This document shows positions 3,856-11,366 of a DNA stretch of 64,000 bases, in pieces (the first letter of the stretch is position 1; each line of letters begins with the position of its first letter). Where the stretch lies: contig JBFGLM010000008.1 of NCBI GenBank assembly GCA_041576165.1, positions 1 to 64,000 of the forward strand, given 5' to 3'. This DNA is from Acidimicrobiia bacterium (GTDB taxonomy: Bacteria > Actinomycetota > Acidimicrobiia > Spongiisociales > Spongiisociaceae). Under the pieces are notes generated by a model that had not been told where the DNA came from, did not search any database, and saw only the letters and a program-made list of their open reading frames with translations. The position numbers and the translations under genes were made by a program.

Positions 3856-4164
3856 TCACATCTCGATTGCTTCACGCACTTCGACAGTGCCGCCGGCCGA
3901 GAGATGAGGGCTCGCTTTGGCGAATGCCACCACGTCGTCGATGGAGTCGGCATTGATCAGGCTGTAGCCGTTGAGGCTGGTAGCCGTGTCCGACACCGCG
4001 CCGTCGGCGGACACCGACTTGGCTTGCCCGAGCGGAGCGCCTCCATCGACCAACTTGTCGCCGGCCGAAGCCAGCCACTCGCTCCAAGCCGCCATCACAG
4101 AAGCTTGCTCAGCCTCCGTCTCTGGCATCCCGCCGCCGTGGTACGCGAGCAGGTACTTGGCCAT
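3856..4164 (-). CDS. YciI family protein
   Basis: MAKYLLAYHGG...GYSLINADS...GGTVEVRE pattern; GGAGG RBS. Confidence 0.8.
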   Translation of the reverse strand: MAKYLLAYHGGGMPETEAEQASVMAAWSEWLASAGDKLVDGGAPLGQAKSVSADGAVSDTATSLNGYSLINADSIDDVVAFAKASPHLSAGGTVEVREAIEM

Positions 4165-4648: not shown

Positions 4649-5402
4649 TTAAGCATGACCTTGAACCTGTCGCCGAGCCGCTCCTCCCTGAATCCGGCGG
4701 TGTTCAGAAACATACTTTCCGAACGCTCGGCGCTCCCGGATCGCGTCGAAACCGGCCACGGCCCGGCCAAATGGGATCACCGTCACTTGGGGACGCAGCT
4801 TGCCATGGTCGTACAGGTTCATGACCCGGCGATACATCTCCCAATAGCCGGCGCGATCGCGCTCGACGGCGAGGCCGGCGTTCACGCCCACCACAGCCGA
4901 ACCTTTCACAGCACCACGTTGTACGGAGAGACTGGATAGTGCCGCCGGCGAAGCCCAAAGCCAGGAGGCGGCCATTCCACGCCATGGCTCTCGCCAGATC
5001 TTCGAAGCCCGCGCCGCCGACGACGTCGACGGCGACATCGACACCGCGCCGGGCCAGCGCCCGGAGGGCAGGGCGCAGATCATCTTTTCCGCGAATCACG
5101 ACGTCGTGGGCGCCGTTCTCATGTGCAAACGCGCCCTTCGCTTCGGTGCCGACGACGGCTATCACCTGGGCACCAAGAGCTCGACCCAGCTGCACCGTGG
5201 CCGAACCCAGAGCGCCGGCGACGCCCGTTACCACCAACGATTCGCCGGATCGGAGTTCCGCTTGCATGAGCAGGTCGGGAAAGTTCATGCCGCTGGCCTC
5301 CATGGTTATGCGCACATGCCCGTGGGGGAGAGGAACTGGTTCCATCTCCCGCAGTTCGAGGTTGCGATGGTCCCCGTAGGCGTCGATCTGCCACGCGTGC
5401 AC
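4649..5402 (-). pseudogene. NADPH:quinone oxidoreductase (MDR family) pseudogene
   Basis: NFPDLLM joins directly to QAELRSGESLVVTGVAGALG, so the GroES-domain middle is missing. A frameshift near 4925 puts the C-terminus (KGSAVVGV...RRAFGKYV) in another frame. Confidence 0.8.
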
Positions 5403-5436
5403 GAGTGGAGGGTGCCAGATCCGCAGCTCGCCCGAC

Positions 5437-6459
5437 TCAAGCCGCGATGTGACCGCGCTCGAGCTGATCTTGGACGGTGGCGGCGATTGTTTCATCAAGC
5501 GGCCGGTACCTCACACCCAGCTCGTCCTGCACCCGCGACGCATCAAATGTCGTCGGGCTTCCGAGGTTGGCGTGCAGGAACTGGCGTACGCCTTTGGGCT
5601 GCACATATGCCAGCAGCCTGACAACAGCGCTGCCGGCAGCGTTGTCGAGCGGAAGCCTGGGCAACTTCGGATGGTCGTGAATGGCCCGCGCCGCGGCGAC
5701 GGAATCTCGCATGCTGATCTGGCCGGCGCAGGCTATGTAACGGCCCGATGCGTTTTGGGTCTCGGCTGCTGACTGGTGGACCTCGGCCAAGTCGCGGACG
5801 TCGACGACATTGAATGTCAAATCCATCAGAGCCGGCCACTTGCCCGCGTACATGTCCCGAATCATCCTTGTCGACTCGCTCAGCCGGGGACCGAGCGCGG
5901 GGCCCCACACAAAGACCGGCTGGACCGCGATGAGATCGAAATCGGGCTGCCACTCCTCCATGAACGCCCACGCTGCCTTCTCGGCCATCGTCTTCGAATA
6001 TGCGTACGCGCCGTGTGTGAGCGACGAGTCGGTGTTCCAGGTGTTGTGATCTACCAATCGCCCATCCCGGCGTCCTCCCAGAGCGGCGACAGACGAGGTC
6101 TGCACGACGCGTTTCACGGTCCCGGCACGCCGGCTCGCATCGAGCACAGCCTCGGTGCCGTTGACGGCTGGGTCCACGAGGTCGCGCTGGGGGTCATCGA
6201 CAGTGAGTTGCAGCGGGCTCGCAACATGGAACACCAATTCGGATCCAGCGATCGCGGTGTCGAAGGACCCCGGATCCATGAGGTCGGCTTCGAACAAACT
6301 CAGCCGGTCGAAACCGTCGAGATGGGAAAGGAACCCGGAGCGAGCACGATCGGCGTCGCGAACGGTCCCCCGCACCTCATAACCTTGATCGAGCAGACGC
6401 TGAACGACGTGCGACCCGATGAACCCGGTGGCGCCCGTGACGCACGCGGTAGCCGGCAC
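5437..6459 (-). CDS. NAD-dependent epimerase/dehydratase (aldehyde/dihydroflavonol reductase-like extended SDR)
   Basis: VTGATGFIG, FHVASP, TSS and YAYSK motifs. Confidence 0.9.
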   Translation of the reverse strand: MPATACVTGATGFIGSHVVQRLLDQGYEVRGTVRDADRARSGFLSHLDGFDRLSLFEADLMDPGSFDTAIAGSELVFHVASPLQLTVDDPQRDLVDPAVNGTEAVLDASRRAGTVKRVVQTSSVAALGGRRDGRLVDHNTWNTDSSLTHGAYAYSKTMAEKAAWAFMEEWQPDFDLIAVQPVFVWGPALGPRLSESTRMIRDMYAGKWPALMDLTFNVVDVRDLAEVHQSAAETQNASGRYIACAGQISMRDSVAAARAIHDHPKLPRLPLDNAAGSAVVRLLAYVQPKGVRQFLHANLGSPTTFDASRVQDELGVRYRPLDETIAATVQDQLERGHIAA

Positions 6460-6522
6460 GTTTCCTCCCTCCGGCGCAGACTGCTGAGCTTATCGAAGCG
6501 GTCCGTTCGTGGCATGAACGCA

Positions 6523-8175
6523 TCATGGGCCGGAAGCGGCGTGGCGGTACACCTCCACGTCAACTGGGGCCAGCGGCGTGTTGCCCAGGATCAAGTCGGC
6601 CGCCTTCTCAGCGATCATCATGACGGGCGCATAGATGTTGCCGTTGGTCACGTAGGGCATGACCGAAGCATCGACAACCCGCAGATTGTCGACGCCGTAG
6701 ACGCGCATCGATCCCGGATCGACCACGGCCACGTCATCTGCGCCCATCCGGGCCGTACACGAGGGGTGCAGGGCCGTCTCTGCATCCCTTTTGACCCATT
6801 CCAGGATTTCTGGGTCCGACTCTACTTCGTGGCCCGGCGACAGCTCGCCGCCGTTGTAGCGGTCGAACGCGGGCTGATTCAGGAGCCGTCGGGCCACCCG
6901 CACGGCCTCGACCCACTCCCAACGATCCTGGTCCGTCGACAGGTAGTTGAACTGCAACGCCGGGTGCACTCTCGGGTCGTCGGACTTGAGCTTGACCGAG
7001 CCGCGTGCGTCGGAGTTCATCGGCCCAACGTGGACCTGGTATCCATGGCCGCCGGCCGGTGATGTGCCGTCATAGCGTATGGCGATCGGCAGGAAGTGGA
7101 ACATCAGGTTGGGATACGCGACCTCTTCGTTGCTCCGTACGAATCCGCCCGCCTCGAAGTGATTCGAGGCACCGAGACCGCGACGGCCAAACAACCACTC
7201 CCCTCCGATTATCGGGCGCCGCCACCAGGCAAGACCTGGAGCGATCGAGACCGGCAGCTTCGATCGGTACTGGATGTACACCTCGAGATGGTCCTGGAGG
7301 TTCTCGCCCACGCCGGGGACGTCGGCGACGGGTCTGATGCCCAACGCCTTCAGCTCGACGGCGTTGCCAACACCCGAAAGCTGCAACAACTGGGGCGAGT
7401 TGATCGCCCCCCCGCATAGGATCACCTCCCCGGCGGTCACCGTGTGGGACCGGCCGCGGTGCTCGTAGTCGACCCCGGTAGCACGGGGTCCGTCAAACCG
7501 AATGCGGGTTGTGAATGCTCGGGTCCTGACCTCTAGGTTGGGCCGGCGGATCACAGGGCGGAGATACGCCACCGACGCGCTGTGTCGCCGGCCGCGGGAG
7601 ATGTTGCGGTCGAATGCGGCGAAACCCTCCTGCTTGTAGCCGTTGACGTCATCGGTGAGGTCGTATCCCGCCTGCTGGACTGCTTCGAAAAAGGCATCGA
7701 ACAGCGGATTGGTGGCCGGCCCCCGCTCGAGAATCAGTGGTCCTTCGCCACCGCGGTACTCGTCGGCTCCGGCGAGGCACGTCTCCATCCGCTTGAAGTA
7801 GGGCAGACAGTGGGCATAATCCCAGGCCTCCATGCCGGAATCTCGCGCCCACTTGTCGTAGTCCATCGGGTTGCCACGTTGGAAGATCATGCCATTGATG
7901 CTGCTCGACCCGCCGAGCACCTTGCCCCGGGCGTGATAGATGCGCCGTCCGTTCATGCACGGCTCGGGCTCGGACTCGTAGCGCCAGTCGTAGAAACGGC
8001 TTCCGATCGGAAAGGCCAGCGCGGCCGGCATGTGGATGAATACGTCCCAGCGGTAGTCCGGGCGACCGGCCTCCAGCACCAGGACGCGGGTGGCCCGGTC
8101 GGCGCTCAGCCGGTTGGCCAGCACGCATCCGGCGGAACCCCCGCCCACGATCACAAAGTCGAATCGGTCCGTCAC
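6523..8175 (-). CDS. betA: Choline dehydrogenase (GMC oxidoreductase)
   Basis: [44 protein letters not shown] and TNGNIYAP motifs; GTG start overlaps the merR stop. Confidence 0.9.
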
Positions 8176-8606
8176 GGGTGCGCCGCCACCGTCTCGTTTC
8201 TTGGCGGCGGACTTTCGATCACGTGGCACACGCAGGTATCCGGCCATGCGTCGGTCACGTTGGCGGCTGCGGTTTGCAGGTGGCCGAGCTCGGCCCGAAG
8301 GCGCTGCAGGTCTTCGATGCGTCTGTCGATCGCAGCCGCCTCTCTCGCCATCGAGTTGCGCACCGTGGCGCACGGCGCCTTCCCCTCAGTGCGAAGGCCC
8401 ACGATCTCGCGAATGTCGTCCAGCGGCAGCCCCAGCGAGCGCAACCGCCTGACGAAGCGCAGTAGGTCGACTTCATCGCGGCCGTAATCGCGATAACCGG
8501 CCGTGGTTCGACAGGGCGGGGGGGTCACGCCGTTTGATTCGTAGAAGCGTATGGCCGAAGCCTCCAGGCCTGAGAGTCGGGCAGCTTCTCCGATGCGCAC
8601 AGTCAC
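8172..8606 (-). CDS. MerR-family heavy-metal-responsive regulator
   Basis: [24 protein letters not shown]; Cys in APCATV plus C-terminal TCVCH. Confidence 0.9.
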
Positions 8607-8629
8607 CTCCGTGATCGGCCGGATCCTAA

Positions 8630-8650
8630 ACCTTCTAGCAGATTCAAGGT
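8630..8650 (-). promoter_or_regulatory. MerR/CueR-type operator upstream of the merR gene
   Basis: ACCTTGA-N7-AGAAGGT dyad followed by -10 TAGGAT; resembles the 9483-9503 site; -35 is weak. Confidence 0.65.
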
Positions 8651-9468
8651 AGGGGGATACCAGTCATCTGCGGAGCGACTGAGATGAAGAAGAACCAGCC
8701 TCCCACGACCACCATGACCCAGCCGCTCCATCGCTTCACGGCGGGGCCGGCCATACGAAGAGGTTGGATGGCGTCCGCTGCGAGCCGCGGCACTGCCACG
8801 GCTGCCACCACCAGAAGCGCCGCAAACACCATGGCGGCGGTGGCAAACGCCCAAGCTGTCGCGACCGGGCCGGAAACGAGGCTCTGTGAGGCCAGACCGG
8901 CCAGCAGCGGCCCCGTTCACCCGAACCCGATCAGCAGGTAGGCGGCCCCATAGAGAAAATCCCGACTCCCAAGGCTCCGATGGCGCATCATGTCGAGGCG
9001 GGAGCCGGCCGCACCTGCGATCCGGTCGAGCCATGAGCCGCCAGCCAGCAGGCGACCGGCCTGGCGCAGTCCCAGCAGAACCAGAAACGTTCCGACTGCG
9101 ATCCGAAACGCCCTGCCGGCGCTGGATTCCGACCCGACGATGTTTCCCGCGGCTAATCCGCCCGCGACGAAGATGACTGTTATCGCGCCGAATGTGACGG
9201 TCACGCCGGCGGCGATTCGTGCGACGCGAGCCGCCGAGCCCGAGCCGCTCGGCGGCCGAGCGAGGATGGTCAGCAGCAGGGGGAACGAGCAGGGGGAGAA
9301 GAATGCTCCGAACCCAGTGGCAGCCGCCAACACCATGGCGCCGCCCGCGGCGTCGCCACCTGGAACGCTGCGGGAGGCGATGAATCCGGCCAGCCCGGCC
9401 AGCAGCACACCGCCGGCGACGATCAGGAACCGAATGCGCCCCCGGCGGCGTTGCGTGAGGTCGTCCAT
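8644..9468 (-). CDS. CcdA/DsbD-beta-like membrane protein, predicted selenoprotein (UGA at 8917-8919)
   Basis: First motif FFSPCSFPLL. ORFs 8917..9468 and 8644..8832 are in one frame, separated by a single TGA in IGFG-U-TGPLL, the second catalytic Cys position. A SECIS-like hairpin follows. Confidence 0.78.
8884..8919 (-). promoter_or_regulatory. Putative bacterial SECIS element
   Basis: UGA ACG GGG CCG CUG CUG GCC GGU CUG GCC UCA CAG; GGCC/GGCC stem with GGUCU loop starting at +19, extendable by CUG/CAG pairing. Confidence 0.65.
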
Positions 9469-9475
9469 CTGAGCG

Positions 9476-9506
9476 ACGCTAGACCTTCAAGTCACTGGAA
9501 GGTCAA
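9476..9506 (-). promoter_or_regulatory. MerR-type promoter with 19-bp spacer and operator
   Basis: TTGACC-19 bp-TAGCGT with ACCTTCC-N7-TGAAGGT dyad (9483-9503); ATG lies 7 nt after the -10, so probably leaderless. Confidence 0.85.
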
Positions 9507-9543
9507 CGGTCCAGGCGGCCGTTTCTATGACCCGGCCACGGAA

Positions 9544-9570
9544 TTAGCACCTTCTTAGGAAGAGTTTGAG
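9544..9570 (+). promoter_or_regulatory. 11-bp-periodic direct repeats (OmpR-type box candidate)
   Basis: TTAG-N7-TTAG-N7-TTGA upstream of the repeat-protein gene. Confidence 0.5.
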
Positions 9571-9633
9571 GCATCCACAGGGCCGCATCTGTGACACTTG
9601 TCCGCAGTTAGCAGACAGTCAGGAGCCCAACCC

Positions 9634-10173
9634 GTGGTGATAGCCAAAAAGTGGAAGGTCGTATCGGGAGGTTTGTCGCTCACCGTCGCCCTCGGCGGCG
9701 GTGCCGCCTGGGCAAATGCCGAGGATGTGACAGTTGAACCCGATGAAACCACCATTCCCACCTTGGCCGATGTGGTCCAGGACAAGTTGACCGAGACGAC
9801 GGTTGTCACCGTCGGCGGTGAGGATGTTCGAGTCAAGATGCCGGGCGATTCGCCGCTGGACCCGCTGACGGTCACGGTTTCGCCTGTGGAGGAGTCGCCA
9901 GTCACGGTTTCGCCTGTGGAGGAGTCGCCAGTCACGGTTTCGCCTGTGGAGGAGTCGCCAGTCACGGTTTCGCCTGTGGAGGAGTCGCCAGTCACGGTTT
10001 CGCCGGTGGAGGAGTCGCCAGTCACGGTTTCGCCGGTGGAGGAGTCGCCAGTCACGGTTTCGCCGGTGGAGGAGTCGCCAGTCACGGTTTCGCCTGTGGA
10101 GGAGTCGCCGAAGACGGTGTCGCCTGCGACAGCAACGCCGGATACCGCATCGCCCGATACATCTGACGACTGA
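9634..10173 (+). CDS. Secreted acidic Ser-Pro repeat protein
   Basis: AGGAG RBS, GTG start; KKWK plus hydrophobic core plus AWA signal; (VTVSPVEESP)x8; ends TPDTASPDTSDD. Confidence 0.85.
   Translation: MVIAKKWKVVSGGLSLTVALGGGAAWANAEDVTVEPDETTIPTLADVVQDKLTETTVVTVGGEDVRVKMPGDSPLDPLTVTVSPVEESPVTVSPVEESPVTVSPVEESPVTVSPVEESPVTVSPVEESPVTVSPVEESPVTVSPVEESPVTVSPVEESPKTVSPATATPDTASPDTSDD
9871..10110 (+). repeat. Coding tandem repeat, 30 bp x 8
   Basis: Unit GTCACGGTTTCGCC(T/G)GTGGAGGAGTCGCCA, contiguous with no spacers; only synonymous differences between units. Confidence 0.98.
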
Positions 10174-11366
10174 TGGCGTTGAGGGCGGTTGACGAACCAG
10201 CCGCCACCGGGGGTTCCCTCGTAGCGGAGCTGCTCGGAGACGGGGCGGTCGATGTGCTCAGCAGTCTCCTCGCGGAGGATGGGCGCACATTGATCTCCGC
10301 TCGTCCCTGGCAGGTCCGCTATCGCCCCCCGGACGCAGTCCGGGTCGTGTACCACGTCGACTGCGAACGTGACGGTCGGGCTGCAACAACGTTCCTTGCG
10401 TTGGAGGCCGGACGTCGATACAAGGGCGGCGTCATCCTCCAGCGAGGATTCGACCAGCTTGTGGCCTGGGAGTATCCCAATGATCCGCGCTTGCCCGGGT
10501 TGGCGAGCATTGTCGAGCGCGAGAAACTGGCACCGATCATCGCTCAGGTCGGCTTCGACCAGGAAATCGTCTCGATCCGCGTCCGTTCCTACCGGGCGAG
10601 CAAACGCGCCGTCGCCGAGGTCACGGGCACGACCAAGCGGGTGTTCGTCAAGGCCGTGAGACCGTCGGCCGCGGAGGAACTGCAACGTCGACACGTGGAA
10701 CTCACCCCGTATCTACCGGTGCCGCACAGTCTGGGATGGTCTGAGGAGCTCGGGATCGTCATCCTGGAAGCGTTGCCGGGCCGGACTCTACGCGACGCCC
10801 TTGCTGATGGGGGACCGGCGGGAGTCGATGTCCGGCCGCTTATTGCAGCTTTGGACCGACTCCCGCCGGCAAGCTCTGATGCGCCGTCAGCGCACGATCC
10901 ATTGGCGGCTACGAGCTCGTATGCCCGCCTGGTTGCCAACGCCACACCCGAGCTAGCACACCTCGCTGGGGAGATCGCCGAGAGGTCGCAGCGGCTCGAT
11001 CGAACCGCTGATCGATGGGTTCACGGCGACTTCCATCTGGCCCAGGTGATGGTCGGCGCTGAGGGAATGACTGGAATCGTCGATGTCGATCGGGCGGGCG
11101 CCGGTGACCCGCGCGACGACCTGGCGACCCTCATTGCCCATGCCCACAGTACGGCACTCGGTGTGACGAACCCCGCGCCCGTAGCCGAGCTCGGGCAGCA
11201 GGCGCTGGCGGTCGCCGAGGACCGCTACGACCGCGACGATATCCGGACGCGCGTTGCGGCGGTGATGCTCGGTTTCGCCGTAGGACCCTTCTCCTCGTAC
11301 GCCGAGGATTGGAGGAGCGACTTGAAAATCAAGCTGGCGGCGGCCTGTGAATGGCTCCCCGCATGA
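10173..11366 (+). CDS. APH/choline-kinase-fold phosphotransferase with N-terminal extension
   Basis: VFVK, VHGDFHLAQV and IVDVD motifs; DPRLPGL motif; TGATG coupling to the upstream gene. Confidence 0.88.
   Translation: MALRAVDEPAATGGSLVAELLGDGAVDVLSSLLAEDGRTLISARPWQVRYRPPDAVRVVYHVDCERDGRAATTFLALEAGRRYKGGVILQRGFDQLVAWEYPNDPRLPGLASIVEREKLAPIIAQVGFDQEIVSIRVRSYRASKRAVAEVTGTTKRVFVKAVRPSAAEELQRRHVELTPYLPVPHSLGWSEELGIVILEALPGRTLRDALADGGPAGVDVRPLIAALDRLPPASSDAPSAHDPLAATSSYARLVANATPELAHLAGEIAERSQRLDRTADRWVHGDFHLAQVMVGAEGMTGIVDVDRAGAGDPRDDLATLIAHAHSTALGVTNPAPVAELGQQALAVAEDRYDRDDIRTRVAAVMLGFAVGPFSSYAEDWRSDLKIKLAAACEWLPA

Follow-up and report, generated by a model that had tools for sequence, protein, structure and literature searches.

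A putative MerR-type unit activated by soft metals was found in the first 64,000 nucleotides of contig JBFGLM010000008.1 (positions 1 to 64,000, forward strand; this whole stretch is hereafter referred to as the window) of an Acidimicrobiia bacterium (GenBank assembly GCA_041576165.1). Its main target would be a gene encoding a predicted selenocysteine (Sec)-containing membrane protein, its inducer is most probably Hg(II), and the membrane protein is proposed to carry metal on sulfur and selenium, a reading to which we give an overall probability of ca. 0.6. The assembly, a metagenome-assembled genome (MAG) of 5,115,095 bases in 161 contigs with 96.5% completeness and 7.5% contamination, was searched as a whole, and the window was compared with 80 related loci taken from public genomes, for the most part MAGs of Acidimicrobiia with some Chloroflexota. 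The elements of the unit in the window are as follows.

9476..9506, minus strand: promoter/operator 1, with -35 TTGACC (9506..9501), a 19-nt spacer (9500..9482) and -10 TAGCGT (9481..9476)
8644..9468, minus strand: predicted Sec membrane-protein gene, 274 codons plus TGA stop (8646..8644), ATG at 9468, in-frame TGA at 8919..8917
8874..8918, minus strand: hairpin resembling a selenocysteine insertion sequence (SECIS), directly 3' of the UGA, with apical stem GGCC/GGCC and loop GGUCU (8898..8894)
8623..8653, minus strand: operator 2, with dyad ACCTTGA-N7-AGAAGGT (8650..8630) and -10 TAGGAT (8628..8623) after 19 nt
8172..8600, minus strand: merR, 142 aa from GTG 8600 (alternative GTG 8606, 144 aa), stop at 8174..8172, GGAGG 5 nt upstream

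Operators and regulator

The sequence upstream of the Sec gene, TTGACCTTCCAGTGACTTGAAGGTCTAGCGT, contains a dyad, ACCTTCC-N7-TGAAGGT (9503..9483; core ACCTTC-N9-GAAGGT), which is located within the promoter spacer and has perfect arms of 6 bp (ACCTTC/GAAGGT), the 7th position being unpaired. The architecture of MerR-type promoters, namely a spacer of 19-20 bp with a dyad inside, is found in full at this site and in part at operator 2, where the 19-nt spacing and the -10 are present and the -35 is not. Since the ATG of the Sec gene (9468) begins only 7 nt past the -10 of site 1, the corresponding mRNA should be leaderless or nearly leaderless. The dyad of operator 2 has 5-bp perfect arms (core ACCTT-N11-AAGGT) and encloses the stop codon of the Sec gene. 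An earlier reading made from the sequence alone had described both elements, TTGACC-19 bp-TAGCGT with its dyad before the Sec gene and ACCTTGA-N7-AGAAGGT before merR overlapping the Sec gene stop, and they were indeed read on the minus strand at 9506..9476 and 8650..8630, respectively. The start near 9468 expected by that reading likewise implies a leaderless transcript, and all its statements at the sequence level were confirmed. That the two operators match is also borne out, as exact copies of ACCTT-N11-AAGGT occur twice in the window against 0.03 expected and at least two were obtained in none of 100 shuffles; when one mismatch or less was allowed, no additional site was detected in the window. 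A genome-wide scan for the dyad, proposed by the same reading, returned three exact sites in the 5.1-Mb assembly, which correspond to the two window sites and to one on contig C59, together with a near-exact site on contig C84 (see below). Finally, a scan of 5000..10500 for terminators and sigma-70 promoters detected no terminator-like site in that interval and a single, unrelated promoter-like match (7793, plus strand); it considered spacers of 16-18 bp only and was hence blind to MerR-type promoters.

A strict promoter scan of the relatives (T[TC]GAC, 20 nt, TAnnn[TC], at least 5 of 7 dyad pairs; 437 kb covered) returned 32 sites, of which 14 are located upstream of a Sec gene (13 relatives and the window) and 10 at the stop of a Sec gene. 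Six others lie either before merR-merA (L037 and L042) or before Sec genes missed by the motif search (L049, L057 and, twice, L077), and two are unexplained. A promoter with the same half-site (TTGAC-19/20-TAnnnT) is therefore present upstream of the Sec gene in 13/80 loci and at its stop, before merR, in 10/80, with both sites occurring together, as in the window, in three relatives (L028, L031 and L047). At the Sec gene stop, these 10 loci have the full TTGACC-19-TAnnnT, and in nine of them the TGA of TTGACC is the stop codon itself, whereas in the window these bases are changed and the frame extends by two codons to a TGA within the dyad; for this reason the second operator looks ancestral and partly decayed in the window.

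A MerR homologue was found at most 3 kb from the Sec gene in 38/80 loci, either directly downstream or divergent upstream. In L023, L026, L028, L029, L031, L034, L036 and L047, merR is directly downstream on the same strand and its product displays 60-70% identity to the window regulator; a good many of the more distant loci have it in the classical arrangement, upstream and divergent. In the closest relatives (L026, L028, L031, L034, L036 and L047), the Sec gene is followed by merR, a gene for a DF-family (seleno)protein and a gene for a rhodanese-CBS protein, in this order. As a switch this is standard MerR biology, the uncommon feature being its tandem arrangement. Because the operator and the merR linkage recur across related loci, control of the selenoprotein gene by a metal sensor is supported by comparative sequence data, which make this predicted regulatory link much stronger than a single genome would allow.

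The regulator itself belongs to the MerR family, with a helix-turn-helix and a coiled-coil dimerisation helix, as indicated by its matches to PF13411 (MerR_1; 66 bits, cut-off 21.6), PF09278 (MerR-DNA-bind; 62.2, cut-off 25.4) and PF00376 (41.8, cut-off 28.2). Its best NCBIfam matches are CueR, CadR, ZntR and MerR, every one of them below cut-off, and its matches in PDB include CueR (69 bits) and the Bacillus-type MerR 4ua1 (67.8 bits). An alignment of 39 homologues, 38 of which are relatives of the window regulator, suggests the second GTG (8600) as the start. The Cys opening the dimerisation helix and the CVCH motif pointed out in the sequence-only reading were found as C79 and C134-V-C136-H137 in the 144-aa numbering (C77, C132, C134 and H135 from GTG 8600). 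The first Cys is invariant in the 39 aligned homologues, and the window clade has C-x-C-H. In the alignment, Cys79 stands opposite Ser77 of Escherichia coli CueR, the position of CueR Cys112 is not a Cys, and that of CueR Cys120 is one. In CueR and ZntR structures, the residue at the CueR-77 position is Ser with +1 ions and Cys with +2 ions. The regulator has three Cys (C79, C134 and C136); the C-x-C spacing of the last two is unlike that of solved MerR proteins, and only one aligns with a known ligand position.

When compared to the MerR/Pmer systems of Tn21/Tn501 and of the Bacillus type, the predicted unit shares a dimeric MerR-family regulator, a promoter spacer of 19 bp that houses the dyad and autoregulation of merR, but in the window merR follows its target on the same strand and, in place of one divergent operator, a second operator occurs at the target stop. 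A first Cys where the dimerisation helix begins and two C-terminal Cys are further points of resemblance to mer-type MerR proteins, and merA is predicted to be under the same control in L032, L037 and L042. The regulator differs from them in its half-site, in a C-terminal Cys pair occurring as C-x-C-H on a longer loop, in having predicted selenoproteins as targets, and in belonging to a genome in which no MerA was found.

The predicted selenoprotein

In silico analyses indicate that the TGA at 8919..8917 is a selenocysteine codon (Sec184, in GFG-U-TGP); the other motif of the protein, FFSPCSFP, contains Cys60 (codon 9291..9289). Over the 80 related loci, the codon at the Sec position is TGA in 73, TGC in one and TGT in one, with five loci escaping the motif used for codon typing, and the reading frame is conserved past the TGA in the 73 loci. 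Homologues in databases either end exactly at G-F-G or read on with a Cys (GFG-C-TGP). Bacterial SECIS elements are recognized as a hairpin shortly after the UGA with a G in the apical loop. Here, the loop GGUCU is invariant in 71 distinct sequences aligned downstream of the TGA and is located 18 nt after the UGA. In this alignment, 84.7% of the cells pair and double changes occur at 6/7 pairs, giving a covariation score of 0.307 versus 0.139 in shuffles (reached by 0/500) and at most 0.136 in slid control windows; the same helix was chosen by RNAalifold. The fold energy of the window hairpin is ordinary for its G+C content (z = -0.06), and the argument for Sec recoding rests on covariation rather than on energy.

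The genome also encodes a Sec machinery, all above cut-offs, with two selA, two selB, one selD and two strong tRNA-Sec genes. The selenoprotein predicted by the sequence-only reading is consequently backed by the codon counts (TGA in 73/80, Cys in two), by the covarying hairpin and by the presence of selA, selB, selD and tRNA-Sec. The machinery genes are distributed over contigs C1, C24, C100 and C145. The selD gene carries an in-frame TGA, so that SelD would be a selenoprotein itself, and the two copies each of selA, selB and tRNA-Sec are on different contigs of this set; the presence of two strains, and not true duplication, may account for this, given the 7.5% contamination.

The membrane protein had no match in Pfam or NCBIfam at E <= 10. 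It falls short of the PF02683 threshold; 6/53 family members match this family, with a best E of 4.2e-6. A profile built from these 53 members aligns over its full length with the Thermus thermophilus CcdA (5vkv), FFSPCSFP corresponding to the first Cys motif and GFG-U-TGP to the second, with E = 1.2. An AlphaFold (AF2) model of the protein (pLDDT, the predicted local distance difference test, 83.1; pTM, the predicted template modelling score, 0.74) had 5vkv as its top Foldseek match (E 0.011, probability 0.99, template modelling (TM) scores 0.33/0.39). A VIA-align search over ca. 48,000 chains gave generic helical-bundle matches only, among which CcdA (Z 5.7, rank 33) was non-discriminating. 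Comparison with structure clusters was performed with a natural Cys-form homologue in place of the recoded window protein and gave TM scores of 0.65-0.70 with DsbD_TM clusters. The protein has ca. seven helices. From the profile and the model it would be a remote CcdA/DsbD-type protein, and it is called here CcdA/DsbD-like rather than an established member. Its predicted resemblance to CcdA and the DsbD transmembrane domain (PF02683) lies in a six-helix core and in the mid-membrane motifs SPCxxP and xxCxGP, with which FFSPCSFP and GFG-U-TGP align; it differs from them in having Sec as the second Cys, an extra N-terminal helix, and a context of metal sensing instead of cytochrome c maturation.

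Among cluster representatives, the family comprises 1,995 members at E <= 1e-3 and 135 at E <= 1e-30. The best 150 representatives include 65 that end at G-x-G and correspond to Sec forms, 35 with Cys, two with another residue, and 48 that are fragments or more distant. Database members of 183-202 aa stop at GFG because gene callers truncate or split the gene at the Sec codon. N-terminal HMA fusions were found by Pfam in P0030 and P0033 and, from CxxC N-termini, in seven more of the 150 representatives; some fused relatives carry the source name CopZ/CcdA. A tblastn search of 72,556 plasmid records with the membrane protein gave no match at E <= 1e-3.

A 2026 review (PMC13188914) lists 119 selenoprotein families in its Table 1, among them a mercuric transport selenoprotein of MerT type and TsoB, in which a rhodanese is joined to DsbD. 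A CcdA-like selenoprotein family of the window type is absent from these 119 families, and no CcdA-like selenoprotein was found by literature searches or by term look-ups within PMC13188914, PMC13326102, PMC12013277 and two bioRxiv preprints, the supplements of which may list candidates. The MerT-type selenoprotein of PMC13188914 resembles the window protein as a mercury-linked membrane protein with Sec, but the MerT fold is not that of the window protein.

Predicted partner genes and probable inducing metal

Further elements related to the unit or adjacent to it are the following.

contig C84, 1975-3122 (L112:1975-3122), plus strand: operator/promoter with a near-exact dyad copy and full promoter architecture, TTGACCTTCAAGCAGGTTGAAGCTGTATGTT
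contig C84, 1975-3122, plus strand: genes for a DF-family protein and then a rhodanese-CBS protein, behind this operator copy of their own
contig C59, ca. 4000-4100 (L113), minus strand: perfect operator/promoter TTGACC-19-TAACGT, TTGACCTTCGAGTCGCTTGAAGGTTTAACGT
6523..8175, minus strand: GMC oxidoreductase gene (Pfam GMC_oxred_N and GMC_oxred_C), the GTG start of which overlaps the merR stop (GTGA, 8172-8175)

The DF-family protein of C84 is a Cys form, thioredoxin-like, scoring 68.1 bits against NF049942 (cut-off 70). The rhodanese-CBS gene has two in-frame TGA codons (VVVY-U-HDGL-U), both of which are conserved in 11 related loci. By sequence reading, the N-termini of the two proteins display neither a signal peptide nor a membrane anchor. 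The U-x4-U motif is that given for TsoB (PMC13188914 Table 1), whose rhodanese and DsbD-like membrane domain form a single protein, and by analogy the rhodanese-CBS and the CcdA-like protein may cooperate. The two parts, fused in TsoB, are encoded here by neighbouring genes. The local rhodanese, however, scores only 31 bits against NF045694 (cut-off 805) and has a CBS domain in place of the membrane domain. Other genes in the C84 neighbourhood encode ArsR, DUF3237 and MerB-like proteins.

The C59 promoter precedes a decayed merR fragment (MRIGQALV...) that ends after 30 codons, and the site with its merR remnant looks like the relic of a further copy of the module. Another palindromic promoter with a 19-bp spacer, TTGACCCTCACGTAACGTGAGGGTGTATCTT, located on contig C17 (ca. 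15813, minus strand), was not retained as part of the regulon: it has a different half-site and is followed by a gene for a TipA-like MerR with a long C-terminal domain.

With regard to the metal, a MerA above the TIGR02053 cut-off of 454 bits was found in 5/80 loci (L032, L037, L042, L045 and L089, with 523-565 bits), and MerB-like genes also occur in 5/80. The gene order is Sec gene, operator, merA, operator, merR in L032; merR, merA, Cys form of the membrane protein in L037; and merB, merA, Sec gene, with a divergent merR, in L045. Since regulators of the window clade, together with this operator, stand before bona fide merA genes in L032, L037 and L042, Hg(II) is the leading candidate inducer, with a likelihood that we place a little over one half, and a cross-response to other soft metals is likely. 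In a sample made of this genome and 120 relatives, one unpublished genome being excluded, MerA occurs in 4/9 carriers of the family versus 9/111 non-carriers (Fisher p = 0.008, the relatives being non-independent). The Hg/Cd/Zn list of the sequence-only reading is therefore narrowed, in that Hg(II) leads through the merA-linked regulators; this assignment is tempered by the lack of MerA in the genome and by the closeness of site 1 to a CueR box (see below).

A C-terminal Cys pair is typical of MerA. The four best MerA-like genes of the genome are all below cut-off and none of them ends in such a pair. In the relative G037, a bona fide merA is directly followed by a gene for a MerA paralogue (contig C16, 200235-201584, plus strand), which scores 375 bits, short of the cut-off, and contains a single in-frame TGA. 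A gene on contig C42 of the assembly (9712-10416, plus strand; L114:1712-2416) encodes a MerB domain (PF03243, 70 bits) and has an in-frame TGA (WWDDIAET-U-RTIRF). The C84 MerB-like protein shows a Cys at the aligned position, and a strong hairpin with a GGUC loop lies after the TGA. The gene has no NCBIfam match and may represent the Sec form of an organomercurial-lyase-like protein.

CcdA-type membrane proteins are also found inside mercury-resistance clusters of actinomycetes and other Gram-positive bacteria, and Table 4 of PMC12195606 has CcdA-domain "mercury transporter" entries for Gordonia and Mycobacterium. Those are Cys proteins with a secreted thioredoxin-like partner, in contrast to the Sec protein described here and its predicted cytoplasmic partners, DF and rhodanese-CBS.

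No homologue of the GMC oxidoreductase was found in the 80 related loci; the gene is outside the conserved module and is probably co-transcribed with merR. The C-terminal tail of the window MerR past CVCHVIES is longer than in relatives, which fits a rearrangement that put the GMC gene in place of the DF and rhodanese genes. On the other side, divergent from the Sec gene (9598-10173, plus strand), occurs a gene for a 191-aa protein with a hydrophobic N-terminus and ca. nine tandem copies of a 10-residue unit, VTVSPVEESP (30-nt DNA repeats); its sole Pfam match is a sub-threshold one to Extensin_1 (44.7 bits, cut-off 105).

Proposed mechanism and alternatives

In the proposed mechanism, a dimer of the regulator would bind ACCTT-N11-AAGGT inside the over-long 19-bp spacer, as expected of the MerR family. 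One subunit would contribute Cys79 and its partner C134 and C136 to a tri-Cys site; filling of this site, most probably by Hg(II), would re-align the -35 and -10 elements and turn on the leaderless Sec gene mRNA. The dyad copy at the 3' end of the Sec gene would govern merR; since the -35 of site 2 is decayed in the window, merR probably leans here on read-through from promoter 1, which would create a positive feedback loop. The C84 copy would drive the gene for the thioredoxin-like DF-family protein and that for the predicted double-Sec rhodanese-CBS. The genomic context suggests that the C60/U184 pair, located at the mid-membrane motifs, would carry the metal across the membrane between sulfur and selenium by the alternating-access movement through which CcdA exchanges disulfides. 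The metal would be handed to, or received from, cytoplasmic thiol/selenol proteins, i.e. the rhodanese, DF, the fused HMA domain of some relatives and, where present, MerA. Import towards MerA fits the MerA-bearing loci, and export or sequestration fits better the MerA-less half of the carriers. DNA binding, the identity of the inducing metal, transport of metal and not of electrons, and the direction of transport are all inferred.

Several observations weigh against this interpretation. The regulator passes no NCBIfam equivalog cut-off (CueR TIGR02044, 91.7 versus 147.4; MerR TIGR02051, 76.8 versus 150.85), and its C-x-C arrangement together with a loop longer by five residues than that of CueR fits no solved metal site. 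The -35 position of site 2 (8653..8648) reads CCTACC, which had not been mentioned in the sequence-only reading and which is poor or decayed and not usable here, and, within the 7-nt arms, a single position distinguishes site 1 from the CueR box of the E. coli copA promoter (TTGACCTTCCCCTTGCTGGAAGGTTTAACCT). The nearest characterised relative of the membrane protein moves electrons, not metals. No MerA was found in this assembly (best TIGR02053 score 304 versus 454 bits, at 96.5% completeness), and 5/9 carrier genomes are without it, including ones rated 100% and 98% complete, so that feeding MerA cannot be the general role of the module and an importer without the reductase would be harmful. 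Finally, since the assembly is a MAG with 7.5% contamination, it is an assumption that C84 and C59 belong to the same cell as the window contig, and the GC content fails to separate these contigs.

The main rival explanation keeps the same switch and has the membrane selenoprotein passing reducing equivalents in a CcdA-like manner via a Cys-Sec selenylsulfide, in the service of thiol repair or protection in the envelope under metal stress and with no metal transport. Indeed, CcdA is the only characterised relative designated both by the profile, in which 5vkv is aligned over the full length with both motifs, and by the fold, where it is the top Foldseek match; the Cys-form homologue also matches the DsbD_TM clusters, the partners of the module have redox-type folds (rhodanese and thioredoxin-like DF), and more than half of the carrier genomes have the module without MerA. 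The module, however, encodes no extracytoplasmic thioredoxin-like acceptor, the N-termini of DF and rhodanese being devoid of signal peptide or anchor, and both the HMA fusions and the positions directly after merA (L037 and L045) suit a hand-over of metal better. Electron transfer is considered unlikely.

A second alternative, which appears more doubtful still, is that the regulator is a CueR-like sensor of Cu(I), Ag(I) or Au(I) and that the module handles copper and not mercury. Site 1, TTGACCTTCCAGTGACTTGAAGGTCTAGCGT, is nearly identical to the E. coli copA promoter, TTGACCTTCCCCTTGCTGGAAGGTTTAACCT, with which it shares TTGACC, the 19-bp spacing and a dyad of the ACCTTCC-N7-GGAAGGT type; moreover, CueR is the best match of the regulator in NCBIfam and its best-scoring solved relative in PDB, and the name CopZ/CcdA is attached to some fused relatives. 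Against copper, the position of CueR Ser77 is a Cys in 39/39 aligned regulators, CueR Cys112 has no counterpart and the loop is five residues longer. The neighbouring genes are of mer type and not copper genes, with same-clade regulators preceding merA and no copper ATPase among the 89 neighbouring open reading frames scanned.

That the TGA is a true stop or the break of a pseudogene and the two dyads a chance resemblance is very improbable, for although gene callers split or truncate the gene (proteins of 183-202 aa ending at GFG) and the energy of the window hairpin is unexceptional, in 73 loci an open, conserved frame continues beyond the TGA and two others have Cys, the hairpin covaries, a Sec machinery is present, and both the statistics and the conservation of the dyads speak against chance.

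A broader proposal, which we put forward tentatively as possible rather than probable, is that Acidimicrobiia and some Chloroflexota have their own defence against mercury or other soft metals, built of selenoproteins and workable without mercuric reductase. A MerR sensor would switch on a Cys/Sec carrier of CcdA fold, a U-x4-U rhodanese-CBS and a DF thiol protein, and Hg(II) would be caught on selenolates, which bind it more tightly than thiols, and be expelled or immobilised (for instance as Hg-Se/S) instead of being reduced.

The switch itself is known; what sets it apart is its predicted targets, a CcdA-like selenoprotein family absent from the 119-family catalogue and a double-Sec rhodanese-CBS. 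By tying both to metal sensing, the operator provides a testable function for two uncharacterised selenoprotein families, the first of which is widespread and has been hidden by truncation during gene calling (65 of the best 150 representatives are cut at the Sec codon). The conserved operator also offers a simple motif-scan handle on the remaining regulon in MAGs. If the metal is mercury, abundant uncultured actinobacteria of marine and sediment habitats would have a second way of handling it that is based on selenium, and the selenium and mercury cycles would be directly connected at the molecular level.

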